64,000 bases of DNA, taken from positions 62,001 to 126,000 of the forward strand of contig PS015009.1 of the NCBI GenBank assembly GCA_048213135.1, given 5' to 3'. This document shows, piece by piece, positions 27,702 through 39,995 of this stretch; position 1 is the first letter of the stretch, and each line of letters begins with the position of its first letter. The position numbers and the translations under genes were made by a program. The DNA is from Reclinomonas americana ATCC 50394. Lineage: Eukaryota. The notes under the pieces are model-generated. The model did not search any database, was not told where the DNA came from, and was given only the letters and a program-made list of their open reading frames with translations.

Positions 27702-29012
27702 TTAGTAATTTCTCTTCAACGCTTTCCCATACACTTCCAAACACCTCTTCCTCGCTATTTCGTGTTCGACTACCGGTGATGGATACCCGAATTCATCCAG
27801 CTCCGGCACCCATTTTTTTATATACTTCAACTCGGGATCGAATTTTTTTGTCTGCAGGTAAGGATTGAATATCCTGAAATAAGGCGCAGCATCACAGCCA
27901 CTGCCTGCCGCCCATTGCCAACCGCCATTATTCGCAGCCAGGTCAAAATCGAGCAGCTTTTCAGCAAAGTAAGCCTCGCCCAGCCGCCAGTCGAGCAGCA
28001 GGTGCTTGGCCAGGAAAGACGCCACTATCATTCTTACACGATTGTGCATATAGCCGGTGGCGTTGAGTTCCCGCATACCGGCATCTACAATCGGGTAGCC
28101 CGTTTGCCCCTGGCACCATCTTTCAAATTCGCCGTCATCTCTCCGCCATTCAATACGGTCATACTCCGGCTTAAAAGCCTTGCCCTGCCCCACCTGCGGA
28201 AAATGCCACAATATCATCTGGTAAAATTCCCGCCAGATCAGTTCATTTAAATACACGGCGGATAAAGGCTGGGCATGCTTTGCCAGCTGGCGGATACTGA
28301 TAATACCAAAACGCAGGTGCACACCCAGCCGCGATGTCCCCTCTTTCGCGGGATAATCCCGGTGGTCACCATATTGTTTCAGCAACCCGTCTTCCGTTTC
28401 CGGCGGCGGAAAATTGTTGTCGGTTCTTTCAAACCCTATCGACTGCAGGGAAGGCAATTGTTGTTCTGCCTGTTTAAAAAAAGAAGCGACATATTTTTTA
28501 TTGGGGTAAGGGCGCAGGTGAAAATCCGTAAGCACCGATTTCCATTTGCGGCTGTATGGTGTGAACACGGTATAAGGTTTGCCATCATCTTTCAGCACCT
28601 CATCTTTTTCCAGCAATACCTGGTCTTTAAAAGAACGGAACATTATTTTTTCTGATGCCAGCCACTCCGCAACCGCGGCATCCCTTTCCCTGGCATAGGG
28701 TTCGTAATCATGGTTGGTAAAGACAGTGCCTATCTCATACTTTCCGGCCAGTTGCTGAAACGCCTCCCCGGGTGTAGTGTAAAAAACTTCAAGCGACGAA
28801 CCCAATCCAACCAGCTCCTTTTGCATATTCGTTAATGCCTCATGTATAAAACTCACCCGCCTGTCTTTTTTATCCGGCAGCAGGTCAAGGATATTTTTAT
28901 CAAAAATGAAGATGGGCACTACCGGCCGGTCAGACCGAAGCGCATGGTAAAGGCCGGCATTATCAAAAAGCCTGAGGTCACGCCTGAACCAGAAAATGTT
29001 TACAGGTTGCAT
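27702..29012 (-). CDS. phrB: Class I CPD DNA photolyase
   Basis: WFRRDLRLFDN, ELIWREFY, GYMHNRVRM, NNGGWQW and RIFNP motifs. Start trimmed to MQPVNIF. Confidence 0.93.
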   Translation of the reverse strand: MQPVNIFWFRRDLRLFDNAGLYHALRSDRPVVPIFIFDKNILDLLPDKKDRRVSFIHEALTNMQKELVGLGSSLEVFYTTPGEAFQQLAGKYEIGTVFTNHDYEPYARERDAAVAEWLASEKIMFRSFKDQVLLEKDEVLKDDGKPYTVFTPYSRKWKSVLTDFHLRPYPNKKYVASFFKQAEQQLPSLQSIGFERTDNNFPPPETEDGLLKQYGDHRDYPAKEGTSRLGVHLRFGIISIRQLAKHAQPLSAVYLNELIWREFYQMILWHFPQVGQGKAFKPEYDRIEWRRDDGEFERWCQGQTGYPIVDAGMRELNATGYMHNRVRMIVASFLAKHLLLDWRLGEAYFAEKLLDFDLAANNGGWQWAAGSGCDAAPYFRIFNPYLQTKKFDPELKYIKKWVPELDEFGYPSPVVEHEIARKRCLEVYGKALKRNY

Positions 29013-29031
29013 GTGCAAACTAACAACAGGT

Positions 29032-29871
29032 TTATGAAATGGTTGTAATAATGCGGTTGTAAATTTCAAGGGATAATTGATTCCCGTAGGTGTTATTGCC
29101 GGCGGATTTTACCCATCGCAACGGGTGAATGGAATTGGTAAGAAAAACCTCATCTGCATTCATAAGTTCGTCAACCGTTATTTCTTTTTCCTTAACGGTA
29201 TAGCCATTCGCTTCCAGCCCGGCTATCACCTGCCTGCGCATCACCCCGGCAATGCAGCCTTCCTGTAATGACGGTGTTGCAACCACGGCATCTTTCACCA
29301 GGAAAATATTGGCCACGGTGCTGTCACAAACGCGGCCGTAACTGTTCAGTACAATGGCGTCGTTCCATTTTTGCTTTTTGGCTTCCAGGGAAGCGATCAC
29401 GTAAGGCAGGAAGTTGCTGTGTTTGAGATTGGACAGCACGTCGCAGCTTTTTTGCACTTCACGGCAAATACCCACTTCCAGCCCGTTGCTGTTAAAGCCG
29501 CCATAACCCTGCGGCAGTCCCCAGGTTTGTATCAAATGGTTGGGGTAATGATTTTGCGGATCGTACAAACCGCCATCACCACGAAAGACTGAAAGCCTGA
29601 TCCTTGCCCCGGAAGTATGACCGTTCTTTTGCAGCAGCGTTTCTATATGCTGCAGGAAATATTCCGGCGTGATTTGTTTGGGAATGTCGAACCTGAGCAC
29701 AGACATACCTTTCCACAGGCGGGCAAAGTGTTCGTCGGCAAACTGTACTGTTCCGTTATGGTACCGGATGGTTTCAAAAAGTCCGTCGCCGTAACGAAGC
29801 CCCCGGTTGTGCGGGCCTGCAACAGCTTCGCTTTCCCTGAATAATTTTCCGTTGAAACTGTAATAGCTCAT
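29032..29871 (-). CDS. Class IV aminotransferase (aminodeoxychorismate lyase / BCAT family)
   Basis: RGLRYGDGLFET, NLKH, ANIF, GVMR and EVFLTNS motifs. Start trimmed to MSYYSF. Confidence 0.88.
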   Translation of the reverse strand: MSYYSFNGKLFRESEAVAGPHNRGLRYGDGLFETIRYHNGTVQFADEHFARLWKGMSVLRFDIPKQITPEYFLQHIETLLQKNGHTSGARIRLSVFRGDGGLYDPQNHYPNHLIQTWGLPQGYGGFNSNGLEVGICREVQKSCDVLSNLKHSNFLPYVIASLEAKKQKWNDAIVLNSYGRVCDSTVANIFLVKDAVVATPSLQEGCIAGVMRRQVIAGLEANGYTVKEKEITVDELMNADEVFLTNSIHPLRWVKSAGNNTYGNQLSLEIYNRIITTIS

Positions 29872-29920
29872 GCTGCAAATATGGTGTTTTTTGAATTGAC
29901 CGGAAACAACACCGGCCCAT

Positions 29921-29956
29921 AAAAAGAGATCCCACCGCATGGGTGGGATCTCTTTT
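29921..29956 (-). terminator. Rho-independent terminator of the response regulator gene
   Basis: AAAAAGAGATCCCAC-CGCATGG-GTGGGATCTCTTTT hairpin. Confidence 0.85.
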
Positions 29957-29973
29957 CAAATTCATATAGGGGG

Positions 29974-30660
29974 TTACAGTTCTTCGTTGAGGATGTTGTG
30001 TTTCACCGCGTACATAATAAGCCCGGCTGTGCTTTTGGCGCCCGTCTTTACTTTCAGCTTATCGCGTATGGCTTCCACCGTACGGGGGCTCAGGTCTACC
30101 AGGTCGGCAATCTCCTTGGTGCTTTTTTCTTCGCACATCAGTTTCAGTATAAGCGTTTCCTTTTCGTTGAGGTGCGCTTCCTGCTGCATCAGTTTTTGCG
30201 GTGTTACCACATTGCGTTGCTTCAGGTTGGTGAGCAGGGCTTTGTTGGTAAGCGAGTTGAAATAATATTCCTGTTCGAAGCAGGTCTTGATGGCTTCGTA
30301 AATGATCTCGCTGTCGCTTGTTTTGGTAAGATAGCTGTTGGCGCCCAGTTCCATCAGTTTGGTGATCATACTGTGATCGTCAACCATGGTCAGCATGATC
30401 ACTTTGGCATCGGGGCAAATCTTTTTGATCTCGGGGAGGGTGGTGATGCCATCCATAATCGGCATCTGTATATCCAGCAGGATCACGTCCGGCGGGATCA
30501 TTTTGATCATGTTCAGCAGGTGCATTCCGTTATCGGCTTCCGCCACCACTTTTACATCCTTTTTTGCGCTCAGGGCAGTTTTAACTCCCGCCCGGTATAG
30601 TACATGGTCATCAGCAATAATCACCTTTATCGGTTCTTTCATGTCAGCGTCTGGCATCAT
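29974..30660 (-). CDS. NarL/FixJ-family response regulator (RR1)
   Basis: IADDH, LLDIQMP receiver Asp, LuxR HTH LSPRTVEAIR. Confidence 0.93.
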   Translation of the reverse strand: MMPDADMKEPIKVIIADDHVLYRAGVKTALSAKKDVKVVAEADNGMHLLNMIKMIPPDVILLDIQMPIMDGITTLPEIKKICPDAKVIMLTMVDDHSMITKLMELGANSYLTKTSDSEIIYEAIKTCFEQEYYFNSLTNKALLTNLKQRNVVTPQKLMQQEAHLNEKETLILKLMCEEKSTKEIADLVDLSPRTVEAIRDKLKVKTGAKSTAGLIMYAVKHNILNEEL

Positions 30661-31004
30661 AATGGGTCATTTTGGGGTATTACAGGATTAGTTTAACCCT
30701 ATAATAACGACAAGTGCAAGTTCAAATTATCCGGAAATATAAATACGAGTGTAATTACCCTATGTTACGGATGGGGATTTTACGATTAAGTCTGCGGATA
30801 GCCCCCGAATTGACCCAATCAGCACCTTATCAGCTACTTATAAAAATAAAAAAAATTGAAGAACAGCGATTTATGAAAAACCGGGAATAAAATACCGGCT
30901 GAGCGGGCAGCATAAAGAAAGCTTTCCCTCATTCCCCTGGCAAAGTCATTGCCATCCCGGGCAGACACCGGGCCGGGTGATGGTCTTTTTATCGGGCAGA
31001 GGTA

Positions 31005-31014
31005 GTAAAACTAC
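31005..31014. promoter_or_regulatory. GTA-N4-TAC box upstream of RR1
   Basis: GTAAAACTAC, identical to the boxes at 35067 and 35532. Confidence 0.45.
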
Positions 31015-31040
31015 ACAGGAATTACCCCGTCGCGGGCAGA

Positions 31041-33407
31041 TTACTCAATAATCCTCTCTATATGTATCAGCCTGCCCAGGGCATCTATCCCTTCAATGGT
31101 CAGGAGAAGACGGCCGGATATATCATTATTGTAATACTCGATCTTCAGTTTCCGGTTTTCTTTGTCGGCAACCAGGTAGGGGTTCCAGTACAGGGTGGTG
31201 CGGGTGTCGGGCTGGGCGGCTGTCCGTTTATCACTGTAATCCGGGTTGAAGAACTCCTTAGGCAAATCATACCCCCTTACCATGGCCGAGCGCATGCTGC
31301 CGGGAGCGGTGGAAGGTTCGTCGCCCTTTTTTGTATAAATATATATGACACCGTTTCCTGTAGCGAAAGAGGAACCGGCCACAATACCCGGGATGTACTT
31401 TACATAAGCCACCGACGAAAGCTGGATGGTTTCCACCATTTCGCCGGGTATTACGGATTCGTTCAAAAAGACCATCACAGGATCACAGGTATATTTACCG
31501 ATCATAGGACAGGGATACAGCATGCGGCTGCCGTACGCACCCGCATAGCCCAGCCCCGGAAACCTGTTCCTGAGGTAACTGAACAGGTCAGGCATTACTT
31601 CAGCATAGGGATCGTCCAGCACATTCAACTGGTATCCCCTGGCAATACCGCTGAAAGTACCACTGGTATATTTATTCTCCAGCTCCAGGGTCCGTTTCGT
31701 AATGGGGTTCATATACTTACCCTTTACCACCACTTCCCGTATGGTTTGCACATCATTGAATTGGCGATGGCGGTTGTAAAAACTGTCGATATAATATCGT
31801 TGTGATACAGGCCGTTCCCACTGCTGCACTGTTGTTTGCACCAGCGGCGGTAATGATGCCGGTACCTGTACGCCTTCATTTCTTTTTACTTCAAGCAGGT
31901 CGGCAAGCCGTTCATCTTTGGACAGGCGGAAATACACTTTAGCAGAATCATAAAAAACAAGGCCGTTCTTTTCAAAACGTGTTTGCCCGATGGGGTCCAG
32001 TATAAAGAACTGGTTACCCGCCACTTTATCTTTTATGATCATCTTCAGGCTTTCCTTTTTATTAAAGCCATGCTCTCCTTCCTTATAGTCTACTTTCAGT
32101 GAGAGGTAGTTGTCGGCCGCAAGGATCTCCTCCCCTGTCTTTTTTACGGGCAGACTGTAACGCCGCCAGCCATGTGTCATTAATATCAGATCTGCCAGTT
32201 CCTCATTCCTGCCACGCTGCAGTTCTCTGAGTACAGTTTCGGGTAATGCCTTTACCTGTTCGGCAAACCATAGATTTTCCCTGATGGCGGGCTGGCTTTT
32301 ATCCCGGTCATAAAAGTTGATATCCGCAATGGATGCCGACATATTGGCAAAAACGGTATCGGGCATCAATACCTCTATAGTATTCTTTGCCCTTGAAGCG
32401 GTTGTCCGCCCTTCGCCATTTATTGCCGGTATATTTTCTTTCCGTGGTGGTACTAAAATAACCCGTTCCTGCAAGGGGTTCCACTTTTCCCCGAAAAGGG
32501 TAAGTTGTACGATGCCGGCCGGCAATGAATCACGGGGTATACTTCCTACCCAGTCCATACGGTCACCTACCGAGAGGCTGGCCCGGTAGAGTTCTTCATT
32601 GTCCATGCGGGCCATCAGGTGAAGGGTTTTGAAATTATCCGCCCCGGTATTTTTGGTAATGTGATAATACAATCCTGTTTGGTTCAGCTCCGCATGCAAC
32701 GCGATACCGTAAGGCTGCACTTCTGGCAATGGGGTTTTCTGCGGCAGGCCACCCGTTGTTTTCCAGCGTGCGGTATAGCTGGTATGCCCCGGTGTCACCT
32801 GCAACCTGCCCATACCCATGGCAGTGGTGTGAAAGGAATCCGTTACCGATCCTGTCCGGTCATCTTCGAGCACACCGCTTATTTCCGCCGGGGTGCCATT
32901 GGCATACCATGCTTTAAAAGCCAGGTAATTGTTGATGCCCGCGATCCAGTTACCGCCTTCGGGAAAGAATTGCAGGTATACGGTATTGGCCGCCATGCCG
33001 CCGGTATTTGCCGGATCGGCCTGCCCTTTCCGGTAAACAGTCAGTATTTTTTCCCACTGGTTGACGCTGTCGGCCGCCAGTATGTTCCTGGTAAACCCCC
33101 TGAACCTGATCTGCCTGGCGGTAATGGTATCGGCGATAAGGAAATCACCATTGCAGGTACCGCCGGATACGGGATAGGTCTTTTGCTCCAGCAGCCTGCC
33201 TTCCTCATCATAAATGGCCGCGTAAAAATTGGTGCTCAGGGAAGAAAGCGCTCCTCCATTATACAGGTAGGCCTTGAACCAGATGGTTTCGCCGGGAAGG
33301 TAAATGTCTTTATCAAAATGGATATGCAACCGTTCCACCGGTTGCGCAAACGAACCCGTTGCTGAAAGCAGGAGTAAACATAACAGGTAAAGGCCTGGTC
33401 TCATCAT
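31041..33407 (-). CDS. Exported MG2/macroglobulin-like protein with TonB-plug-like C-terminal region
   Basis: Signal peptide, HIHFDKDIYLPGETIWFKAY, FFPEGG, LILMTHGWRR and RTTLYWNP motifs. Start trimmed to MMRPGLY. Confidence 0.75.
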   Translation of the reverse strand: MMRPGLYLLCLLLLSATGSFAQPVERLHIHFDKDIYLPGETIWFKAYLYNGGALSSLSTNFYAAIYDEEGRLLEQKTYPVSGGTCNGDFLIADTITARQIRFRGFTRNILAADSVNQWEKILTVYRKGQADPANTGGMAANTVYLQFFPEGGNWIAGINNYLAFKAWYANGTPAEISGVLEDDRTGSVTDSFHTTAMGMGRLQVTPGHTSYTARWKTTGGLPQKTPLPEVQPYGIALHAELNQTGLYYHITKNTGADNFKTLHLMARMDNEELYRASLSVGDRMDWVGSIPRDSLPAGIVQLTLFGEKWNPLQERVILVPPRKENIPAINGEGRTTASRAKNTIEVLMPDTVFANMSASIADINFYDRDKSQPAIRENLWFAEQVKALPETVLRELQRGRNEELADLILMTHGWRRYSLPVKKTGEEILAADNYLSLKVDYKEGEHGFNKKESLKMIIKDKVAGNQFFILDPIGQTRFEKNGLVFYDSAKVYFRLSKDERLADLLEVKRNEGVQVPASLPPLVQTTVQQWERPVSQRYYIDSFYNRHRQFNDVQTIREVVVKGKYMNPITKRTLELENKYTSGTFSGIARGYQLNVLDDPYAEVMPDLFSYLRNRFPGLGYAGAYGSRMLYPCPMIGKYTCDPVMVFLNESVIPGEMVETIQLSSVAYVKYIPGIVAGSSFATGNGVIYIYTKKGDEPSTAPGSMRSAMVRGYDLPKEFFNPDYSDKRTAAQPDTRTTLYWNPYLVADKENRKLKIEYYNNDISGRLLLTIEGIDALGRLIHIERIIE

Positions 33408-33609
33408 TTTGTACAGGGTTGTCTGTTTATGACAGCAATTATTACCCGGAAGTTGCAGGAACATTGTTTTTAATGATCCGCTTACCCCGGGAATACAAAT
33501 TTCATGAACGTTTCGCAGTAATCTGGAAGAAAAAAAACTTTTGTTCCGGGTATTTTCCGAATATGACCGTGTACCGGTATGGTTTATTGTTGCAGTAAAT
33601 ACGCTGTTT

Positions 33610-34263
33610 ATGAAAAGATACAATATTGTTGTAGCGGATGACCATATTGTTCTCCGCGATGCTTTGTGCAGCCTGGTGAATTCATTCGACGACTTCCGGG
33701 TGTCGGATGCCGCCGGCAACGGCCGGGAACTGATCCGTATTATTGAGATGGGGCCGGTGCCTGATATTATCCTGCTTGACCTGAACATGCCGCAGATGGA
33801 CGGATACGCCGTGGTGGAGTGGCTGCACCGGCACCGACCGCTGGTAAAGGTACTGGTGCTGACGATGTACGATTCGGAGATCGCCATGATTCGCCTGCTG
33901 AAACTGGGCGTAAAGGGTTTCCTGAAAAAGGATGTGCATCCTGCGGAGCTGAAAACCGCCCTGCTCTGTATCGCCGAAAACGGCTGCTACTATTCGCACA
34001 GTACCACCGGGCGGCTGGCAGCCTTCTTCCAGCGGGTGGAAGATATGCAGTTGTCTTTTCACAAAGCCCTGCTCTCGGATGCGGAACTGCGTTTCCTGAG
34101 GCTGGCGAGTACCGAACTTACGTATAAGGAGATTGCCCATGCCATGGGTACCACACCCCGTACCATTGACGGGTACCGGGATGACCTTTTTGAGAAACTG
34201 AATGTAAAAAGCCGCGTGGGTCTGGCTATTTATGCGGTAAAGAACGGGATTTCCACCTTCTGA
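33610..34263 (+). CDS. NarL/FixJ-family response regulator (RR2)
   Basis: VADDH, LLDLNMP, HTH TPRTIDGYRDDL. Start trimmed to MKRYNIV. Confidence 0.92.
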   Translation: MKRYNIVVADDHIVLRDALCSLVNSFDDFRVSDAAGNGRELIRIIEMGPVPDIILLDLNMPQMDGYAVVEWLHRHRPLVKVLVLTMYDSEIAMIRLLKLGVKGFLKKDVHPAELKTALLCIAENGCYYSHSTTGRLAAFFQRVEDMQLSFHKALLSDAELRFLRLASTELTYKEIAHAMGTTPRTIDGYRDDLFEKLNVKSRVGLAIYAVKNGISTF

Positions 34264-34264
34264 C

Positions 34265-34930
34265 CTACTCAATCAGTTTGTTGCGCATCCCGTACATGAT
34301 AAGGCCCCCGATGGTTTTGGCATCCACCTTGGTCTTCATATTCTGGCGAATGGTCTCGATCGTACGCGGACTCAGGAAGATGATCTTGGATATTTCCTCC
34401 GTGGTTTTGTCCTCGGCCAGGAGGCGGAGTATTTTCAGTTCTTTTTCGTTGAAACTCACCGGGGTATTGGTACCATAATGCTGTCGGACATTCTTTTTCT
34501 GCATCAGTTTGCCCATTACCGCCTTGTTTACCAGTTCATTAAAGTAAAAATCATCATTCATGCAGGTGAGTATGGCTTCGTAGATCTCTTCGGGGTCGGT
34601 GGTTTTGGTGAGGTAGGCATTGGCGCCCATTTCCATCATTTTGCTGATCATTTGCTGGTCGTCGTACATGGTAAGGACAATGATCTTGATGTCTTCGTAT
34701 TCTTTCCGGATGAGCTGGATGGCGTTGATCCCGTCTATTTCTGGCATCCGGATGTCCATCAGCAGTACTTCGGGCTTTTTAATGGCGATCTTGTGCATCA
34801 TGTCCTTGCCATCTTCGGCCTCCCACAGCATTTTCAGGTTGTCTTTGTTGGCGAGGGCCATTTTGATGCCATCCCGGAAGATTTTATGGTCATCGGCAAT
34901 GGCGATCTTGATAACGTGGTTATTACTCAT
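34265..34930 (-). CDS. NarL/FixJ-family response regulator (RR3)
   Basis: IADDH, LMDIRMP, HTH LSPRTIETIR. Confidence 0.93.
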   Translation of the reverse strand: MSNNHVIKIAIADDHKIFRDGIKMALANKDNLKMLWEAEDGKDMMHKIAIKKPEVLLMDIRMPEIDGINAIQLIRKEYEDIKIIVLTMYDDQQMISKMMEMGANAYLTKTTDPEEIYEAILTCMNDDFYFNELVNKAVMGKLMQKKNVRQHYGTNTPVSFNEKELKILRLLAEDKTTEEISKIIFLSPRTIETIRQNMKTKVDAKTIGGLIMYGMRNKLIE

Positions 34931-35066
34931 AGCGGTTTGATAATGGGTTAGTATAAAACTGGTTCTAAGTTACAATATTCAACATAAAAACACCCCTAAG
35001 GTTGTTCATATGCTGTGGATTTTTATGGGTCATTCTACAGCAAAAACAAGGCCGGGAAATCACTAC

Positions 35067-35100
35067 GTAAAACTACTAGTTAAAATACTCGTTGTTTTAC
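35067..35100. promoter_or_regulatory. Three tandem GT(A/T)-N4-TAC boxes, 12-bp period
   Basis: GTAAAACTAC (35067), GTTAAAATAC (35079), GTTGTTTTAC (35091). Confidence 0.55.
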
Positions 35101-35191
35101 GTACACACCCCGCATTACTACTCGATCGGGGGTAAATTCGGAAACCCCGAAAAAGGGAGTTTATGCGCTTGTGCAAGCCTGGTATCCTTTC

Positions 35192-35199
35192 TATTTTTG
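35192..35199 (+). promoter_or_regulatory. Sigma-A -7 box for the candidate sRNA
   Basis: TATTTTTG ending 5 nt before the 5' arm of the hairpin. Confidence 0.55.
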
Positions 35200-35203
35200 T
35201 ACC

Positions 35204-35329
35204 AGTTGATTGACATTGGTTCACATAATTAATGTTCTATCCAAAAAAATCCAATAAACCTAAGAGTTTCCAATTATCCAACGAAGAACCTGTTTGTGCT
35301 TGTGTTGCCATTGTCAATCAACTCTTTTT
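35204..35329 (+). ncRNA. Candidate small RNA with paired ends and a UCCAA-repeat loop
   Basis: Perfect 12-bp terminal stem (35204-15 with 35312-23) extended by TGG/CCA and CACA/TGTG, then a T5 tract. TCCAA occurs at 35240, 35250, 35269 and 35277. Confidence 0.6.
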
Positions 35330-35471
35330 GAATTTGCCCGACTTTAAATCCAATATCCCGTACACTGATCAACCGGCACAGGAATAGCCCTGTTCAGCAG
35401 CAGAAATGCCAGCTAACCGACAACCACCCGCGACCGGACTTACCACTTTAGGTAAGAAAAAGACTGGAATA

Positions 35472-35564
35472 GTAGATTTACTAACGTAAACTCACGAGGT
35501 TTATTGATAGTAAATTTACTATTTTTTATTCGTAAAACTACCCAAATATACTACGTTAATCTAC
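35472..35564. promoter_or_regulatory. Array of five GTA-N4-TAC-like boxes
   Basis: Boxes start at 35472, 35486, 35510 (inside the perfect palindrome ATAGTAAATTTACTAT), 35532 and 35555. Confidence 0.6.
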
Positions 35565-35596
35565 GTGCCATTATTTCATAACTACTTGACTGTCTT

Positions 35597-35604
35597 TACT
35601 TTTG
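35597..35604 (+). promoter_or_regulatory. Sigma-A -7 box for the peptide transcript
   Basis: TACTTTTG downstream of the box array. Confidence 0.5.
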
Positions 35605-35708
35605 ACTTTCGGCACCCTTTTTGAATCCATTTTAGCCGGTTGTGAGGCTTAGCGTTTTGAAGGAAGTTTACACCTCAAATTCAAATCGTAAACCACAAAA
35701 GCTAAATC

Positions 35709-35753
35709 ATGGTAATCAACTTTATTGAAGCGCTCGCTGAGTTTTTCTGCTAA
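35709..35753 (+). CDS. Candidate 14-aa small peptide MVINFIEALAEFFC
   Basis: ATG...TAA with an A-rich Bacteroidota-type initiation region (CACAAAAGCTAAATC-ATG, A at -3), directly upstream of the 7-TM/HK/RR genes. Confidence 0.55.
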   Translation: MVINFIEALAEFFC

Positions 35754-35773
35754 TTCTGTCCGGTTATTCTATT

Positions 35774-35804
35774 TTTGATTTTGGTAGATTTATAAGTATT
35801 TTTG
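35774..35804 (+). promoter_or_regulatory. Sigma-A promoter (-33 TTTG, 19-nt spacer, -7 TATTTTTG)
   Basis: Consensus spacing, immediately upstream of the open frame starting at 35815. Confidence 0.6.
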
Positions 35805-35814
35805 AAAAAACTAA

Positions 35815-36531
35815 GTACTTATCCTACAAACTCTTAAATACATAACCTATTTCACAGAGGTATTACCTTTTGTCTTTTATCTAATCTTTCTCCGGAAAGT
35901 TATTTCAAAAGATAGAAAGGTATTTTTTTTATATACACTTGTCATTGCTCTTCTTATACTGGTAGCGTTCACTTTCCGCTACGTTTTTGTCCAGTACGAT
36001 AAATACTTCCTCACGGTACGTATTTACAACTTCGTGGAATACGCCCTCTTATCGTATTTCTTCTCGCTCCAGATCAGGAACAGGATCATCCGTAAGGCAT
36101 TGTGGTTTTCTACCATCCCCTTCGCCCTCTTCTGCCTGTTTGACTTTATACGGTCCTCAGGCCCCGAATTGCCGTTTGGCCCCCTGGCGGTGGAGTATGT
36201 AATGCTGCTGATCTTTATTATTTACTTCTTCTTTGAGGTAATGGACAATACCAAGTCGGAGCCCATATACCAGAAACCGGTATTCTGGATATCGTCTGCT
36301 TTCATATTGAACTTCTCAGGTAATTTCTTCCTGTTCCTGTATTCAAAGAACAGTTACAGCGACAATGAAGTATTCCAGCAGCATTATACTATCATATACG
36401 GAACCATCACTATACTGAAAAATATCTTACTTTGCATTTCGGCCTACCAGTCCGAAGAAATACCTAATACGCCCAATCATTCTATTGACGTAAACCTAGA
36501 TTCCTTTTACCCACATATCAAAAAGCAATAA
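35815..36531 (+). CDS. Polytopic (~7-TM) membrane protein, probable co-sensor of the downstream kinase; start codon uncertain
   Basis: Frame of ORF 36034..36531 stays open back to 35815 and adds hydrophobic helices; seven hydrophobic segments in total. Confidence 0.75.
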   Translation, partial: VLILQTLKYITYFTEVLPFVFYLIFLRKVISKDRKVFFLYTLVIALLILVAFTFRYVFVQYDKYFLTVRIYNFVEYALLSYFFSLQIRNRIIRKALWFSTIPFALFCLFDFIRSSGPELPFGPLAVEYVMLLIFIIYFFFEVMDNTKSEPIYQKPVFWISSAFILNFSGNFFLFLYSKNSYSDNEVFQQHYTIIYGTITILKNILLCISAYQSEEIPNTPNHSIDVNLDSFYPHIKKQ

Positions 36532-36540
36532 CGGCAAAAG

Positions 36541-37365
36541 ATGTTCTTTTTACAAATAACAGAATCCTCTGGAATCACTCCTTTTATGCTGCTGGGTATA
36601 TTGGGAATGCTGACGCTGGCGATGTCCATCGTAGGGTTCGTTATTTTTCACCAGCGAAAGGTGATCCGTTATAATAACCAGCTCAAAAAACTGGAAGAAG
36701 AGAAACAACAGATATTACTGAACGCGTCTATCCGTTTCCAGGAAGAAGAAAGGAACCGTATCGCGGCCGACCTGCATGATGATGCCGGTCCCCTGCTGGC
36801 CACTGCCCGCCTTTACCTTAATGAGAACCTGGTGAACCAGGAAAAAAGCCAGCAACTCCAGAGCATCTACAGCGCCAAACAAATACTCGACGACGCCATC
36901 CTGCTGATCCGCAACATCAGCCACAGCCTGATGCCGCCCACTTTAAAGAACTTCGGGCTGGAGAGTGCCGCCACTGACCTTTTTCAGAAGATCGGCGCCA
37001 GCGGCAGCCTCAACGCCAGCGCCCGTTTCCACGATTATCGTATACGCCTGAAGGTTGAACAGGAACTGCTGGTATTCCGCATCATCCAGGAGCTGGTGAA
37101 CAATATCATCAAACACAGCAATTCGGGATTCATCCATCTTACCCAGAATAACAGCGGCAACAACATGTATTTCCGCATACATCATGATGGTACCGGCATT
37201 GTGCAGGCCGACTTTGAAAAACTCAACCAAAGCACGCTGGGACTGGGTTTGAAGAATATTGCCAGCCGTATCCGCGTACTCAAGGGAAGGATATTTTTCG
37301 AGATCGATCCCAGCCATACCTATTATAAGATCACGCTCGAAATTCCCAGGGAACCCGCCATCTGA
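36541..37365 (+). CDS. Sensor histidine kinase (HisKA_3 type) with a single N-terminal TM
   Basis: EERNRIAADLHDDAG H-box, RNISHSL, QELVNNIIKHS N-box, HDGTG and GLGLKNI motifs. Confidence 0.92.
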   Translation: MFFLQITESSGITPFMLLGILGMLTLAMSIVGFVIFHQRKVIRYNNQLKKLEEEKQQILLNASIRFQEEERNRIAADLHDDAGPLLATARLYLNENLVNQEKSQQLQSIYSAKQILDDAILLIRNISHSLMPPTLKNFGLESAATDLFQKIGASGSLNASARFHDYRIRLKVEQELLVFRIIQELVNNIIKHSNSGFIHLTQNNSGNNMYFRIHHDGTGIVQADFEKLNQSTLGLGLKNIASRIRVLKGRIFFEIDPSHTYYKITLEIPREPAI

Positions 37366-37463
37366 TCCTTATCATTTCCTTCATCACCATACGGCAAACG
37401 AACATTAAAAACAGATTTTCAATTCAATATTCCTTTTTGTAATTTTACGACAGCCCCCAGTTT

Positions 37464-38114
37464 ATGAACGAAATAAAAGTCGCCATCGCAGATGATCATA
37501 AAATCTTCAGGAAAGGTGTGATCCTGTCCATGAGGTCCTATACCAATATCAAATTTGTTATGGAGGCCGACAACGGAGATGACCTGCTGGCCAAGATACC
37601 CGAATTTGAACCAGACGTGATCCTGTGCGACCTGAAGATGCCTGTACGTGATGGCATCGATACCACCAAACTCATTACCAAGAATTACCCCGGTATACGC
37701 GTTATCATCCTCACCATGTATGAGGACGAGCGCTTTGTGGGGCACCTGATGGATTGCGGCGCCGCCGGTTACCTCCTCAAAAGTACCGAGCCCGCCGAGA
37801 TCAAAAAAGCGATCATGGACGTGATGCGCACCGGTTTCTACCTCAACCCGTTCGTGAATAAAGTACTCATCAAGAAAAATTACTCCAAGCAGAAATTCAA
37901 CCCCACCCTCACTACGGAAGTAGTACTGAGCGAAAGGGAAAAAGAAGTGCTTACCCTGGTGTGTATGGAGTTTACCGCCGCTGAGATCGCCGCTAAAATG
38001 GACATCAGCGCCCGTACGGTAGAAGCCATCAAAGACAGGCTGATGGAGCGTTTTGGTGTAAAGAACTCGGTGGGACTGGTATTTTACGCGATGAAGAATT
38101 CGCTGATCGATTAA
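37464..38114 (+). CDS. NarL/FixJ-family response regulator (RR4)
   Basis: IADDH, LCDLKMP, HTH ISARTVEAIK. Confidence 0.93.
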   Translation: MNEIKVAIADDHKIFRKGVILSMRSYTNIKFVMEADNGDDLLAKIPEFEPDVILCDLKMPVRDGIDTTKLITKNYPGIRVIILTMYEDERFVGHLMDCGAAGYLLKSTEPAEIKKAIMDVMRTGFYLNPFVNKVLIKKNYSKQKFNPTLTTEVVLSEREKEVLTLVCMEFTAAEIAAKMDISARTVEAIKDRLMERFGVKNSVGLVFYAMKNSLID

Positions 38115-38261
38115 GGCAGTGACCATGCTCGACAGACAACAGACGACAGTATGCTGCGGTATCAATCAGGCTGATAACCACCTGCCTCCTTCTATAATCA
38201 GTTGAATAAATATTGTTGGTGAAAACAGCAGGAACCAGGTGGTCGCGTGGTCCGTCGTCTT

Positions 38262-38897
38262 TTAAAACAACCCAAACAAAGTGGAGTCTATCTTCGTGAT
38301 GATCTGCCCCAGGTGTTCCTCATTTTCAGCAAACTTGTTTTTGTCTGCATCAATGATCAGTAGCGGACCTTCTTTATAATTATCGATCCAGTTGTTGTAG
38401 AATTCGTTGAGTTTTTTCAGGTAGTCGAGGCGGATGTTCTCTTCATATTCCCTTCCCCTTTTCTGTATCTGGGCTACCAGTGTGGGTACCGACGCTTTAA
38501 GATAGATCAGCAGGTCGGGCGGCTGTACCATCGATTTAAGCGTCTCGAAAAATTTATAGTAGTTATCGAAGTCCCTTTTACCCATCAGCCCCATATCATG
38601 CAGGTTGGGCGCAAAAATATTGGCATCCTCGTAAATGGTACGGTCCTGTATAACGGTTTCGGTACCACGATGTATTTCCAGCAACTGGTTCAGGCGGCTG
38701 TTCAGGAAAAATATCTGCAGGTTGAAACTCCACCGGGGCATATCCTCGTAAAAGTCGTTCAGGTAGGGGTTGTGGTCAACATCTTCAAACTGCGGTATCC
38801 ATTTGTAATGCTTGCTCAGCATTTCGGTCAGCGTGGTCTTTCCTGCACCTATGTTGCCGGCCACTGCTATATGTTTGGGTTTCTTGTTCTTTGCCAT
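38262..38897 (-). CDS. Deoxynucleoside kinase (dCK/dGK family)
   Basis: AGNIGAGKTT, QDRTIYED and RGREYE motifs. Confidence 0.92.
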   Translation of the reverse strand: MAKNKKPKHIAVAGNIGAGKTTLTEMLSKHYKWIPQFEDVDHNPYLNDFYEDMPRWSFNLQIFFLNSRLNQLLEIHRGTETVIQDRTIYEDANIFAPNLHDMGLMGKRDFDNYYKFFETLKSMVQPPDLLIYLKASVPTLVAQIQKRGREYEENIRLDYLKKLNEFYNNWIDNYKEGPLLIIDADKNKFAENEEHLGQIITKIDSTLFGLF

Positions 38898-38990
38898 GTT
38901 GCGATTATATTCCGGTAAGTTCTGGTTCCCCCGGGCAGAAGGTCAATTTATACAATCTTTCCGGGATTTGGGAAACAGCCCTGCTTTTTT

Positions 38991-39995
38991 TTAAAAATAG
39001 TTAAGACCCATTGCCGTCCTTACTTCTTTCATGGTAGCGGCGGCGCTGGCATTGCCTTTTTCGGCTCCCTTACGCATGACATCCGACAGGTATTTTTCGT
39101 CCTGCAGAATATCATTCACCTTACGGCGGATAGGGCTGATGAAGTTCACCATATCCTCACCCAGTTGCTTTTTCATATCACCATAACGTATCGTACAGTT
39201 GTTGAAATCGGCCTCGAATTTCTGAACGGTATCTTCGGCGCTTACGAGTTTCATGAGGGTGAACAGGTTTTCGATATAATCAGGTTTGATGGAGTTCATT
39301 TCCGTTGGACCACTGTCGGTTTTGGCTTTCATCACTTTTTTCCTGATCTGGTCGTCTTCATCGGCCAGGTATAAAGTAGCTACACCATTTTCGCTCTTGC
39401 TCATTTTTCCGGAGCCGTCGAGGCTTGGCACTTTCACCAGTTCTCCGCCAAAATTGAAGGCCACTGGTTCGGGAAATACTTCACCATAGCGGTGATTGAA
39501 ACGGTTGGCAAAAGTGCGGGCCATTTCCAGGTGCTGCTCCTGGTCCTTACCCACGGGTACATATTTGGCCCGGTGCAGAATGATGTCGGCGGTTTGCAAC
39601 ACAGGATAGGTCAGCAGGCCGGCATTCACATTCTCAGGGTGCTGCCTTACCTTATCCTTAAAGGTCACTGTTTTTTCCAGTTCGCCCTTATAGGCCAGCA
39701 TATTGAGATAGAGATAGAGTTCAGATGTTTCCCGTAAATGGCTCTGGCAATAGAAAGCCGCTTTTTCGGGATCGAGTCCGCAGGCGATATTTTCAGCCAG
39801 CACGCGGTGTACATTGGCCTTAAGCTCTTTCGTGTCGGGATGGGTAGTGAGTGAGTGCAGGTCGGCCACCATAAAATAGCATTCAAATTCTTCCTGCATT
39901 TTCACGTAGTTGCGGATGGCCCCGAAATAGTTGCCCAGGTGTAAAAAACCCGTGGGACGGATGCCGCTCATAACGATGTCGCGTTTCTTTTCCAT
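38991..39995 (-). CDS. trpS: Tryptophan--tRNA ligase
   Basis: SGIRPTG, HLGN, VPVGKDQEQH and KMSKS motifs. Confidence 0.97.
   Translation of the reverse strand: MEKKRDIVMSGIRPTGFLHLGNYFGAIRNYVKMQEEFECYFMVADLHSLTTHPDTKELKANVHRVLAENIACGLDPEKAAFYCQSHLRETSELYLYLNMLAYKGELEKTVTFKDKVRQHPENVNAGLLTYPVLQTADIILHRAKYVPVGKDQEQHLEMARTFANRFNHRYGEVFPEPVAFNFGGELVKVPSLDGSGKMSKSENGVATLYLADEDDQIRKKVMKAKTDSGPTEMNSIKPDYIENLFTLMKLVSAEDTVQKFEADFNNCTIRYGDMKKQLGEDMVNFISPIRRKVNDILQDEKYLSDVMRKGAEKGNASAAATMKEVRTAMGLNYF

Follow-up and report, generated by a model that had tools for sequence, protein, structure and literature searches.

What do a very short peptide gene, a membrane protein, a histidine kinase, several response regulators, and a structured RNA gene have to do with one another when all of them lie within a single interval? 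Positions 29974 to 38114 of the window, the whole 64 kb stretch of DNA analysed here, hold four NarL-type regulators, a HisKA_3 kinase, a seven-helix membrane (7TM) protein, a 14-codon ORF, an sRNA gene, and a set of palindromes. The host of the locus is a Chitinophagaceae bacterium of soil and water, from a family abundant in soil, freshwater, and wastewater, and all of these parts are kept across up to 58 Chitinophagaceae loci among the relatives compared. No description of a Chitinophagaceae peptide/7TM/kinase/sRNA locus was found in the literature, and the locus looks like an undescribed signalling circuit, in agreement with an earlier sequence-only reading that had not recognised it as described. 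The answer favoured here, with a confidence somewhat short of even, is a conserved Chitinophagaceae regulatory locus in which a split sensor kinase has a peptide partner and NarL regulators drive an sRNA family. Bacteroidota signalling and post-transcriptional control are largely unmapped outside gut Bacteroides.

The larger genes of the interval are as follows.

29974-30660, minus strand: RR1, orphan NarL-type response regulator (Pfam Response_reg 3e-26, GerE 8.8e-9)
33610-34263 (approximate), plus strand: RR4, NarL-type response regulator (Response_reg 2.5e-23, GerE 2e-9)
34265-34930, minus strand: RR2, orphan NarL-type response regulator, divergent from the sRNA gene (REC and GerE, Pfam)
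35821-36531, plus strand (frame open from 35815): 7TM protein gene (no Pfam match)
36541-37365, plus strand: HisKA_3 histidine kinase of 274 aa (Pfam HisKA_3 and HATPase_c only)
37464-38114, plus strand: RR3, the NarL-type response regulator of the operon (REC and GerE, Pfam; nearest structure VraR)

The four NarL/LuxR regulators claimed by the sequence-only reading are thus confirmed by Pfam as four REC+GerE proteins, and all of them retain the acid pocket, the phospho-acceptor Asp, Thr, and Lys (D10, D11, D56, T84, and K106 are invariant). In relatives, the order RR2, a spacer of about 900 nt, 7TM gene, kinase, and RR3 is retained. A kinase gene begins at most 150 nt from the 7TM gene in 59 of 61 loci, an RR3 orthologue is at its place in 55 of 57, and an RR2 orthologue is at its place in all 54 loci that extend far enough upstream. 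Median identity to orthologues is 94% for RR2 and 93% for RR3, compared with 81% for TrpRS, which together with an aminotransferase and a deoxynucleoside kinase makes up the conserved housekeeping flank; RR1 orthologues have a median identity of 87% (34 loci). Since these regulators are better conserved than a tRNA synthetase, they are probably core regulators of Chitinophagaceae. RR4 is hidden beneath an over-extended antisense ORF (31041-33887) and was seen once the plus strand was tested. Its orthologues (51-64% identity) come after a 25-32%-identical kinase in relatives; this second kinase pairs with RR4 in about half of the relatives and is missing from the present locus.

The operon's kinase had been described as lacking a sensor domain, and its N-terminus indeed consists of a short variable outer stub and one hydrophobic membrane helix. 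Among solved structures, the kinase is nearest to DesK and VraS, and RR3 matches VraR at an E-value of 1e-28. The 7TM protein placed just upstream of the kinase is likewise borne out: its gene ends 9 nt short of the kinase gene, and an AlphaFold model contains seven helices (mean pLDDT 70). Neither this protein nor its homologues have a Pfam domain, and their Atlas clusters are unnamed; by these sequence criteria, it belongs to a stand-alone family. A Foldseek search with the model returned GPCR-like 7TM bundles, the best at an E-value of 7e-3 and none significant. No fused 7TM-kinase proteins were found, including among the top 150 homologues listed, which is weak evidence. A complex prediction for the 7TM protein with kinase residues 1-140 gave a score of 0.24, which counts neither for nor against contact. 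On the favoured reading, the kinase would sense through the 7TM protein encoded 5′ of it, as LiaS/VraS-type kinases need an accessory membrane protein, and would phosphorylate RR3; its targets may extend to the orphan paralogues RR2 and RR1. LiaFSR and VraTSR resemble the locus in three respects: their HisKA_3 kinase is of the intramembrane type and lacks a sensor domain, an accessory membrane protein is encoded immediately 5′ of it, and a NarL-type regulator is encoded downstream. However, the 7TM accessory protein belongs to an unnamed family and lacks the DUF2154 domain of the LiaF/VraT family, and those systems have neither a peptide ORF nor a hypervariable cassette.

Translation of the 7TM protein likely starts at an Ile codon, ATC, at 35821. 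The earliest canonical start, GTG at 36034, lies within the conserved protein, and the ORF is without a canonical start in 49 of 63 loci. A programmed frameshift or pseudogene at the 5′ end was considered and rejected: the frame between the ATGGTTATTTTTGAT motif and the ORF varies by locus, the motif itself is the 5′ arm and loop of a hairpin, and a near-identical DNA sequencing run contains no indel at that place.

Upstream of this start, the leader contains three conserved elements.

35655-35708, plus strand: conserved block E (GGAAGTTTACA ... AAACC..AAAA), directly 5′ of the small ORF (alignment of relatives)
35709-35753, plus strand: small ORF of 14 codons and a stop, MVINFIEALAEFFC (conserved ATG, coding signature)
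35784-35827, plus strand: hairpin with its 3′ arm over the first 7TM codons (52 of 58 loci)

Block E may serve as a promoter or as translation-start context. The 14-codon ORF that the sequence-only reading had placed 5′ of the 7TM gene withstood comparison: an ORF of 12-20 codons runs from the aligned ATG in 56 of 58 loci (exactly 14 codons in 27), with a pN/pS of 0.40 compared with 1.01 and 1.18 in the other two frames. Amino-acid constraint is seen within clades, and the peptide sequence is not conserved across them; in a distant genus, whose 7TM protein is 28% identical, a small ORF is also present and encodes an unrelated 23-residue peptide. The peptide has no signal sequence, no double-glycine leader, and no evident pro-region or processing motif. 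The hairpin (at most -6 kcal/mol, ending between -9 and +5 nt from the Ile codon) has arms that differ in sequence from clade to clade. Main-clade loci have a run of 6-7 T after its inner stem, and in the distant locus L083 the small ORF is followed by a 14-bp stem and a T-run.

It is proposed that the leader of the operon encodes a 12-20-residue peptide and ends in the hairpin over the 7TM start, an arrangement that would yield an excess of peptide, with the membrane proteins produced through read-through. The peptide would be a dedicated partner of the 7TM/kinase sensor, acting as a ligand or modulator. Since a hairpin is conserved between the small ORF and the 7TM start, a cis-acting leader-peptide or attenuator reading has to be weighed as well, and we consider it a possible though less probable account. 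In that case the small ORF would be only a leader peptide whose translation or pausing controls the hairpin, either attenuating transcription or exposing the 7TM start; an envelope or membrane cue would be sensed by the 7TM/kinase pair, in the manner of LiaFSR/VraTSR and without a peptide ligand, with the sRNA part unchanged. This is favoured by the hairpin and by the T-runs that follow it in the main clade and L083, by the rarity of canonical 7TM starts, which would fit tight translational control, by the divergence of the peptides between clades, and by the kinship of the kinase with DesK/VraS and of RR3 with VraR. The within-clade constraint on the peptide points the other way, but weakly, as arrest peptides would show the same constraint. 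Genes for peptide products, for example in lantibiotic operons, are also usually laid out with the structural gene ahead of a leaky terminator, which likewise speaks against this account.

The variation in the operon bears further on this choice. Mean pairwise distances are 0.54 for the 7TM protein and 0.64 for the peptide, next to 0.165 for the kinase, 0.11 for RR3, 0.08 for RR2, and 0.18 for TrpRS. Peptide divergence follows the 7TM protein (r = 0.82) more closely than it follows the kinase or TrpRS, with partial correlations of 0.76 given TrpRS and 0.66 given the kinase, either value reached by 0 of 1000 permutations; Mantel-type tests are liberal on related sequences, and the correlation is inflated by linkage alone because the genes lie about 60 nt apart. 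Pairs of loci reveal exchange of the region. Between L054 and L061, dS is 0.04 for the kinase and 0.02 for RR3, compared with 0.68 for the 7TM gene, and sliding identity is 95-100% except from about 7TM residue 35 to its end, where it falls to 66-91%. The peptide is identical in this pair while the 7TM body has been exchanged, thus the two do not always move together. Between L021 and L024, with a dS of 0.12 for TrpRS and 1.27 for the 7TM gene, the variable block takes in the leader, the small ORF, the 7TM gene, and roughly 90 nt at the start of the kinase gene. These patterns support a recombining hypervariable cassette, made up of the peptide, the 7TM protein, and the N-terminal helix of the kinase, between nearly invariant genes. 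The three would co-vary as one cassette, whereas the catalytic and regulator parts stay nearly invariant. Such variation resembles the specificity regions of comQXP or agr, and the cassette is comparable to those of Gram-positive pheromone loci, comQXP being known to be polymorphic. Both the tracking of the 7TM protein by the peptide and the cassette itself, which would be unexpected for an inner-membrane stress sensor, speak against a purely cis-acting leader peptide.

The same parts could be assigned differently, with the 7TM protein as an AgrB-like maturation and export protein and the kinase sensing the product through its outer stub and helix. The gene order of peptide, membrane protein, kinase, and regulator would suit this arrangement, as would the invariant polar residues within the helices of the 7TM family (R69, E75, C107, E127, E141, N166, N170, and K202), the Cys near the C-terminus of many main-clade peptides, and the restriction of kinase variability to the stub and helix. 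However, neither the sequence nor the fold of the 7TM protein resembles AgrB or any peptidase, the stub, at about 12-16 residues, would be very small for a receptor, and the peptides of other clades lack the Cys. We therefore regard this assignment as improbable and keep to the 7TM protein as part of the sensor.

The output side of the favoured reading lies in the spacer between RR2 and the 7TM gene, where an sRNA gene is flanked by palindromic boxes.

35064-35105, no strand: box block B between RR2 and the sRNA promoter, with GTAAAACTAC exact at 35067 and GTTGTTTTAC degenerate at 35092
35170-35199, plus strand: sRNA promoter, TTG, about 19 nt, TATTTTTG (conserved in relatives)
35204-35332 (end approximate), plus strand: sRNA of about 125 nt (nhmmer; covariance model, 135 bits)
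35472-35564, no strand: box array D, five GTA-N4-TAC-like palindromes about 22 nt apart (35472, 35486, 35510, 35532, and 35555)

The structured sRNA candidate of the sequence-only reading is upheld by a fold of -29.2 kcal/mol (z -3.58) and by nhmmer homologues in 49 loci. Its closing helix pairs 35204-35219 with 35309-35325 and is followed by a T-run, which is found after the 3′ arm in 42 of 44 loci, and the loops bear UCCAA repeats and an invariant UGUUUGUGCUUGUGUUGCC stretch. Across the 14 pairs of the helix, 96% of cells are paired and six pairs have changes on both sides, values reached by 0 of 500 shuffles; the helix is mostly invariant, so the covariation support is modest. In 47 of 49 loci, TAnnTTTG lies no more than 22 nt from the helix, and 31 of these 47 have TTG 15-25 nt farther 5′, a consensus that we take to be the Bacteroidota sigma-A promoter. 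A scan for sigma-70-type promoters and terminators gave nothing useful, the promoter type of the organism being different. An Rfam search of 29000-39500 at E-values up to 1 returned two chance matches to eukaryotic families, both outside the sRNA. A 51-codon ORF across the sRNA (35232-35387) was discarded, as it is not conserved and its homologues hold stops.

Paralogues of the sRNA were found in five of five genomes. They have the helix, AUCCAAUAUC-like repeats, and a box about 125 nt 5′ of the -7 box in common, and the helix shows a compensatory change from GACA/UGUC to GAUA/UAUC. In four paralogous sRNA genes, the box lies at the distance seen for block B. Among 11 loci fetched from a sample of the family, six have the sRNA match adjoining an RR1- or RR2-like gene. 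The sRNAs would thus constitute the post-transcriptional output, with three to five AUCCAAUAUC-like repeats in single-stranded loops, and the repeated motif points to a yet-unnamed binder. When RNA duplexes were predicted between the sRNA and the translation starts of the ten local genes, no pairing had a z-score beyond -1.24, and the complement of the repeat (ATATTGGA) is present in four copies against 2.8 expected, which is no enrichment.

About nine palindromic GTA-N4-TAC boxes had been claimed for the interval, and that count stands. The window holds 21 copies of GTANNNNTAC, compared with an expectation of 8.5 ± 2.7, and none of 100 shuffles attains 21. Ten of the 21 copies fall within 31005-37439, six of them intergenic (31005, 35067, 35472, 35510, 35532, and 37439), and degenerate boxes at 35092, 35486, and 35555 bring the total to about nine. 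Spacers of the 58 loci contain a mean of 4.53 exact boxes, compared with 0.28 in shuffles. Peptide, sRNA, and boxes are all conserved near orthologous 7TM/kinase genes in Chitinophagaceae, a check that the sequence-only reading had itself put forward. Two of the claimed sites fare less well. An exact box 5′ of RR1, as at 31005, is found in one of 35 loci, and the 37439 site, an exact palindrome in 23 of 56 loci, is more likely a -7 promoter element to judge from its variants in relatives. This site and the conserved motif upstream of RR1 are as follows.

30751-30758, no strand: GTAATTAC palindrome inside the conserved RR1 upstream motif GGGTAATTACAC (read in the sequence)
37439-37448, plus strand: GTAATTTTAC, 16 nt 5′ of the RR3 start (TAAnTTTG-like variants in relatives)

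The box palindrome in general resembles the -7 promoter element. The GGGTAATTACAC motif is visible by eye, without a count, in most of 35 RR1 upstream regions, and a similar motif (AGTAATTACT) lies about 65 nt 5′ of the -7 box of sRNA genes. Counted over one complete genome, the strict box shows no enrichment (56 sites compared with 92 for a control pattern), and three of the 56 GTAAWWTTAC sites fall inside 2.5 kb of the locus. It is predicted that phosphorylated NarL regulators bind the GTAA-N2-TTAC and GTAATTAC palindromes, which would result in autoregulation of the locus and switch on the sRNA family (about 125-150 nt).

These parts could also be neighbours by descent only, in which case the regulators would act independently, the sRNA would be unrelated to them, and the upstream ORF would have no function. 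The linkage between the parts does rest on sequence, and box binding and 7TM-kinase contact are predictions. However, order and spacing are retained across dozens of species, the pairing of sRNA and regulator recurs with paralogues in other genera, unlinked paralogous sRNA genes bear the same upstream motifs, and the small ORF has a coding signature. This makes mere adjacency very improbable, and the favoured reading of one regulatory locus is retained.

The sequence-only reading had combined the logic of agr/com systems with that of Gac/Rsm. The parts are real and conserved together, and the cassette and the multi-copy sRNA have parallels in those systems; by sequence classification, the locus is neither agr/com nor Gac/Rsm by family membership, a HisKA_3 kinase and a GerE-domain regulator setting it apart from the former. 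The agr (AgrBDCA) and comCDE loci are similar in their clustered peptide, membrane protein, kinase, and regulator, in a hypervariable recombining peptide/receptor region, and in repeated regulator boxes in a divergent promoter region. In contrast to the present locus, their kinase is of the HPK10 type and carries a 6-7 TM sensor within the same protein, and their regulator has a LytTR domain. In place of their precursor peptide there is a conserved coding small ORF without a leader or processing motif. In line with the sequence-only reading, which saw no exporter or processing enzyme in the window, the conserved neighbourhood has no exporter gene and no AgrB- or ComAB-like processing protein, and the 7TM protein is unlike AgrB.

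ComQXPA of Bacillus subtilis likewise has a HisKA_3 kinase (ComP), a NarL-type regulator (ComA), a small peptide gene 5′, and a polymorphic peptide/sensor/kinase-N-terminus cassette beside a conserved catalytic part and regulator. The multi-helix sensor is fused to the kinase in ComP, whereas here it is a separate 7TM protein. The locus also differs in having no ComQ-like isoprenyl transferase in the conserved neighbourhood, a 12-20-residue peptide without an evident pro-region, and a Gram-negative Bacteroidota host. ComQXPA has also been the subject of a census paper (PMC4008528).

The GacA box and the divergent luxO-qrr1 layout are familiar features of the Gac and LuxO systems. GacS/GacA-RsmX/Y/Z resembles the locus in that a regulator gene lies beside or controls paralogous sRNA genes with an upstream palindrome and a motif repeated in the loops, regulator control being a prediction here. 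However, the repeat is UCCAA or AUCCAAUAUC-like rather than GGA, the loop motif through which Rsm sRNAs bind CsrA/RsmA, the palindrome is GTAA-N2-TTAC, and a protein-sponge role would follow by analogy only. Very small proteins that modulate sensor kinases are exemplified by MgrB and SafA. A response regulator gene next to or controlling an sRNA is also seen in LuxO-qrr1. QseEGF-glmY is a further case, as far as the available part of its source goes (PMC8745638). According to the available part of the source, FopS and GibS are multi-copy Bacteroides sRNAs with canonical sigma-A-type promoters, and FopS, which is in Rfam, consists of a single-stranded 5′ seed and a terminator (PMC11697453). The present family is similar in copy number and promoter type but, on that account, differs in its long-range closing helix, repeated loop motifs, linkage to NarL genes, and absence of an Rfam match. 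SamT, a small protein tied to a sensor kinase (PMC13425233), and cbrX, an upstream ORF at a two-component system (PMC6591292), join MgrB and SafA as very small ORFs associated with two-component systems. As far as the available parts of these sources go, the examples comprise longer proteins of the membrane or periplasm and an ORF that acts in translational coupling, and none lies in a hypervariable cassette with a separate 7TM protein.

A bolder version of the favoured reading, which we hold to be doubtful, is that the locus is the first Bacteroidota peptide-pheromone system. In this version, a leaderless ribosomal peptide of 12-20 residues would be released, and the 7TM protein would join the HisKA_3 kinase, with its single helix, as a split receptor for it. 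Recombination of the peptide/7TM/kinase-N-terminus cassette would maintain specificity groups, and NarL output would pass to multi-copy sRNAs, which would titrate an RNA-binding protein or a group of mRNAs by means of their AUCCAAUAUC repeats. To our knowledge, no peptide-based cell-cell signalling has been described in Bacteroidota. If true, the pheromone version would place ComQXPA or agr logic and Gac/Rsm logic within one circuit. The locus offers a compact, testable model, with a new 7TM family and sensor-less kinase, a conserved micro-peptide, an apparent Ile-start gene, and a new sRNA family, and the mosaic cassette would provide natural specificity variants ready for experiments.

A hint of transcription in the spacer comes from contigs of a related strain, 95-99% alike, that belong to two RNA libraries of a single study. 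One set covers 33600-35423 and 34035-35472, including the sRNA, and another spans 35522-36224 and 35506-35921, including the leader, the small ORF, and the 7TM start, with no cover between the two sets. Their depths are 225 and 84, 124 and 29, and about 4-10 over the kinase, figures that cannot rank expression or show transcript ends or strand. One of the contigs terminates in adapter letters at 35423.

The regulatory locus at 29974-38114, for which a sequence-only reading had proposed a circuit of small peptide, sRNA and two-component proteins, is real and richer than was visible from sequence alone. Annotation of the window including the + strand bore out the tally of parts, with four regulators, a kinase and a seven-helix membrane protein (7TM) among them, in the following arrangement:

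29974-30660, - strand: RR1, a REC+GerE response regulator
31041 to ~33407, - strand: gene of ~780 codons for a large secreted-type protein (only a weak MG2 match, below cut-off)
~33610-34263, + strand: RR4, a REC+GerE response regulator
34265-34930, - strand: RR2, a REC+GerE response regulator
between RR2 and the 7TM gene: spacer of ~860 nt
35815-36531 (open frame), + strand: 7TM gene
36541-37365, + strand: HisKA_3/HATPase_c kinase gene
37464-38114, + strand: RR3, a REC+GerE response regulator
38262-38897, - strand: deoxynucleoside kinase gene, downstream of RR3
after the deoxynucleoside kinase gene, - strand: TrpRS gene

RR4 is visible on the + strand only, since it is masked by an antisense ORF that extends too far (31041-33887). 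Residue comparison found the phospho-acceptor pocket intact in all four regulators.

Scanning one genome per species yielded 67 loci, all labelled Chitinophagaceae, Ferruginibacter or wider Bacteroidota bins. The order kept among them is aminotransferase, RR1, an optional second kinase with RR4, RR2, a spacer of ~900 nt, 7TM, kinase, RR3, deoxynucleoside kinase and TrpRS, with 7TM directly followed by the kinase in 59/61 loci and RR3 and RR2 in their expected positions in 55/57 and 54/54, respectively. Median identity of the relatives to the window is 94% for RR2, 93% for RR3, 88% for the kinase, 87% for RR1 and 81% for TrpRS, but only 51% for the 7TM protein. The latter represents a stand-alone family lacking a Pfam domain, with 245 homologous proteins at E <= 1e-3 in a word-based search and 1091 cluster representatives in a full profile search; its Atlas neighbours are unnamed Bacteroidota clusters. 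Conservation of the adjoining deoxynucleoside kinase is unusually high (median 95% identity versus the TrpRS value). RR4 is preceded by the second kinase (25-32% identical) in roughly half of the relatives; this kinase is absent from the window, where the large secreted-type gene sits between RR1 and RR4; one relative (L004) has a gene related to the latter at 51% identity. The 7TM gene of L041 and L051, and the kinase and aminotransferase genes of L045, each lie in two pieces in different frames, and these splits may reflect misassembly instead of genuine interruption, as the contig names suggest long-read assemblies.

Conservation of peptide, sRNA and palindromes near the 7TM and kinase genes across Chitinophagaceae, the check that the sequence-only reading had proposed, emerged from the alignment of 58 spacers. 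Seven conserved blocks run from the RR2 side to the 7TM side: an RR2-start block, palindromic box block B, the sRNA gene, box array D, block E, the small ORF and a hairpin region. The ATG of the small ORF, at 35709 in the window, is aligned in 57/58 spacers, the exception (L042) having its ATG three bases downstream. From the aligned ATG, an ORF of 12-20 codons is open in 56/58 loci, with exactly 14 codons in 27. The main-clade peptide reads M-x-x-G-I-I-D-L-L-V-E-C-F-A/S, and those of other clades are unrelated (e.g., MQQWELTMFVND and MYGTLVNLPHGTRLF). In a comparison of 26 distinct versions of 14 codons, the in-frame pN/pS of 0.40 contrasts with 1.01 and 1.18 for the alternative frames, and variability peaks at third codon positions, so the small ORF is coding.

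The sRNA block (35150-35360) was detected in 49 loci. In 47 of these, TAnnTTTG, the -7 element of Bacteroidota sigma-A promoters, lies within 22 nt of the sRNA helix, accompanied by a TTG further upstream in 31. The long-range helix pairs AGUUGAUUGACAUUGG with CCAUUGUCAAUCAACU, and a T-run follows its 3′ arm in 42/44 loci. Across its 14 pairs, 96% of cells are paired and six pairs are changed on both sides, values reached by 0/500 shuffles; pairing is 96.0% on the + strand versus 90.7% on the - strand. Since the helix is mostly invariant, this constitutes moderate support rather than proof. The loops carry UCCA-type repeats (mean 3.3), and the sRNA contains an invariant UGUUUGUGCUUGUGUUGCC stretch. 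No Rfam match was found for the sRNA. A 51-codon ORF overlapping the block was rejected as not conserved.

A covariance model built from the sRNA alignment gave, in each of five related genomes, one strong match at the syntenic place and one to three weaker matches elsewhere. The four weaker matches compared share with the syntenic copy its promoter and AUCCAAUAUC-like repeats as well as the helix, in which GACA/UGUC is replaced by GAUA/UAUC in a compensatory change; a GTANNNNTAC box lies ~125 nt and a AGTAATTACT-like motif ~65 nt upstream of their -7 box. A GAGC-N7-GCTC-like palindrome also covers the -33 region of syntenic and paralogous sRNA promoters, the four weaker matches included (window 35150-35185; L072-L075 ~1440-1475), which suggests a further regulator beside the GTA-type boxes. 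Under stricter filters, 15/61 genomes of a family sample contain sRNA matches at E <= 0.01; among 11 loci examined from this sample, four matches adjoin an RR1-like gene and two an RR2-like gene. One locus (L083) repeats the entire order of RR2, sRNA, small ORF, 7TM gene and kinase. Thus, the association of a NarL gene with a divergent sRNA and shared palindromes predates this clade.

The clustering of GTA-N4-TAC-like boxes held up, with two sites corrected. The window holds 21 copies of GTANNNNTAC versus 8.5 +/- 2.7 expected, 10 of them in 31005-37439, and exact boxes number 4.53 per spacer versus 0.28 in dinucleotide shuffles. As a consensus, the boxes form a GTAA-N2-TTAC palindrome; five copies, spaced ~22 nt, make up array D. 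The strict box is not enriched genome-wide in one complete related genome (56 sites versus 92 for a control pattern), where 3/56 sites lie within 2.5 kb of the locus. The box proposed at 31005 is not conserved among relatives, and the region upstream of RR1 carries a conserved GGGTAATTACAC motif in its place. The box proposed before RR3 aligns with TAAnTTTG variants in relatives and is probably a -7 promoter element. A conserved GAATTTTCTTTT...TAAnTTT(G/A) block at 37366-37463, ahead of RR3, suggests that this regulator has its own promoter within the operon.

Between the small ORF and the 7TM ORF, 52/58 loci contain a hairpin of <= -6 kcal/mol whose 3′ arm ends -9 to +5 nt from the first conserved 7TM codon. 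Its arm sequences differ from clade to clade; the main clade has an inner stem ATGGTTATTT...AAATAACCAT followed by six or seven T, and L083 has a 14-bp stem and T-run at the same place. An in-frame ATG, GTG or TTG occurs near the 7TM 5′ end in only 14/63 loci, so that gene callers truncate the protein (165 aa in the window), and an Ile codon occupies the aligned first position in 55/63. Purifying selection acts on the first 28 codons (pN/pS 0.28). A family that mostly lacks canonical starts but has constrained 5′ codons implies that the window copy is not an exceptional, decayed gene; initiation in this family seems to occur at a non-canonical codon embedded in a hairpin. Under the main rival explanation, the small ORF is a cis-acting leader controlling this hairpin, with all else unchanged. 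The data are compatible both with such a leader and with a peptide that acts as partner of the sensor, as is a leaky terminator downstream of a small structural gene.

The locus contains a variable cassette. Over 34 loci, mean pairwise distance is 0.64 for the peptide and 0.54 for the 7TM protein, next to 0.18 for TrpRS, 0.165 for the kinase, 0.11 for RR3 and 0.08 for RR2. Peptide and 7TM distances correlate (r = 0.82; partial correlation 0.76 given TrpRS and 0.66 given the kinase, neither reached in 1000 permutations), which is read as co-inheritance and not proven co-evolution, as linkage and shared ancestry inflate such tests. Synonymous distances are clearer: between L054 and L061, dS is 0.29 for TrpRS, 0.04 for the kinase, 0.02 for RR3 and 0.68 for 7TM, and between L021 and L024 it is 0.12, 0.33, 0.16 and 1.27, respectively. 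Where dS is estimable, 7TM omega is 0.07-0.30, indicating purifying selection far weaker than on the kinase. Sliding identity reveals mosaic blocks in both pairs. L054 and L061 are 95-100% alike except in 7TM from about residue 35 to its end, and the variable block of L021 and L024 takes in the leader, small ORF and 7TM gene and extends ~90 nt into the kinase gene. Among the aligned kinases, variation is confined to about the first 36 residues (outer stub and membrane helix). This peptide/7TM/kinase-N-terminus cassette resembles the specificity regions of comQXP and agr, where a variable block lies beside conserved parts.

The closest solved structures are DesK/VraS for the kinase and VraR for RR3. 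Kinases of this group sense within the membrane or via accessory proteins, and the 7TM protein is therefore read as a candidate sensing partner of the kinase. From anatomy and conservation, we infer that the peptide would be a dedicated partner of this 7TM/kinase sensor, and that the NarL paralogues may bind the GTAA-N2-TTAC and GTAATTAC palindromes, through which they would autoregulate the locus and drive the sRNA family. By membership, the locus is not agr/com, ComQXPA, LiaFSR or Gac/Rsm, though it would work like a combination of them. Literature searches found no account of the locus, of peptide pheromones in Bacteroidota or of a Chitinophagaceae sRNA. We regard the locus as a variation on known system types, and there is a substantial chance that it is more novel than this.

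Transcription data consist of contigs from two RNA libraries of one study, from a strain 95-99% alike. These cover the sRNA and, separately, the leader, small ORF and start of the 7TM gene, hinting at transcription of both regions. At 35423, one contig (run X15) runs into Illumina adapter sequence, possibly a defined end, of whatever kind, of an RNA from either strand, ~90 nt beyond the sRNA T-run. Both strands of the 64 kb are poor in ATCCAAT, the sRNA repeat core (4 versus 12.6 +/- 3.2 expected); two of the four matches fall in or just after the sRNA, and the rarity may reflect avoidance of a functional motif.
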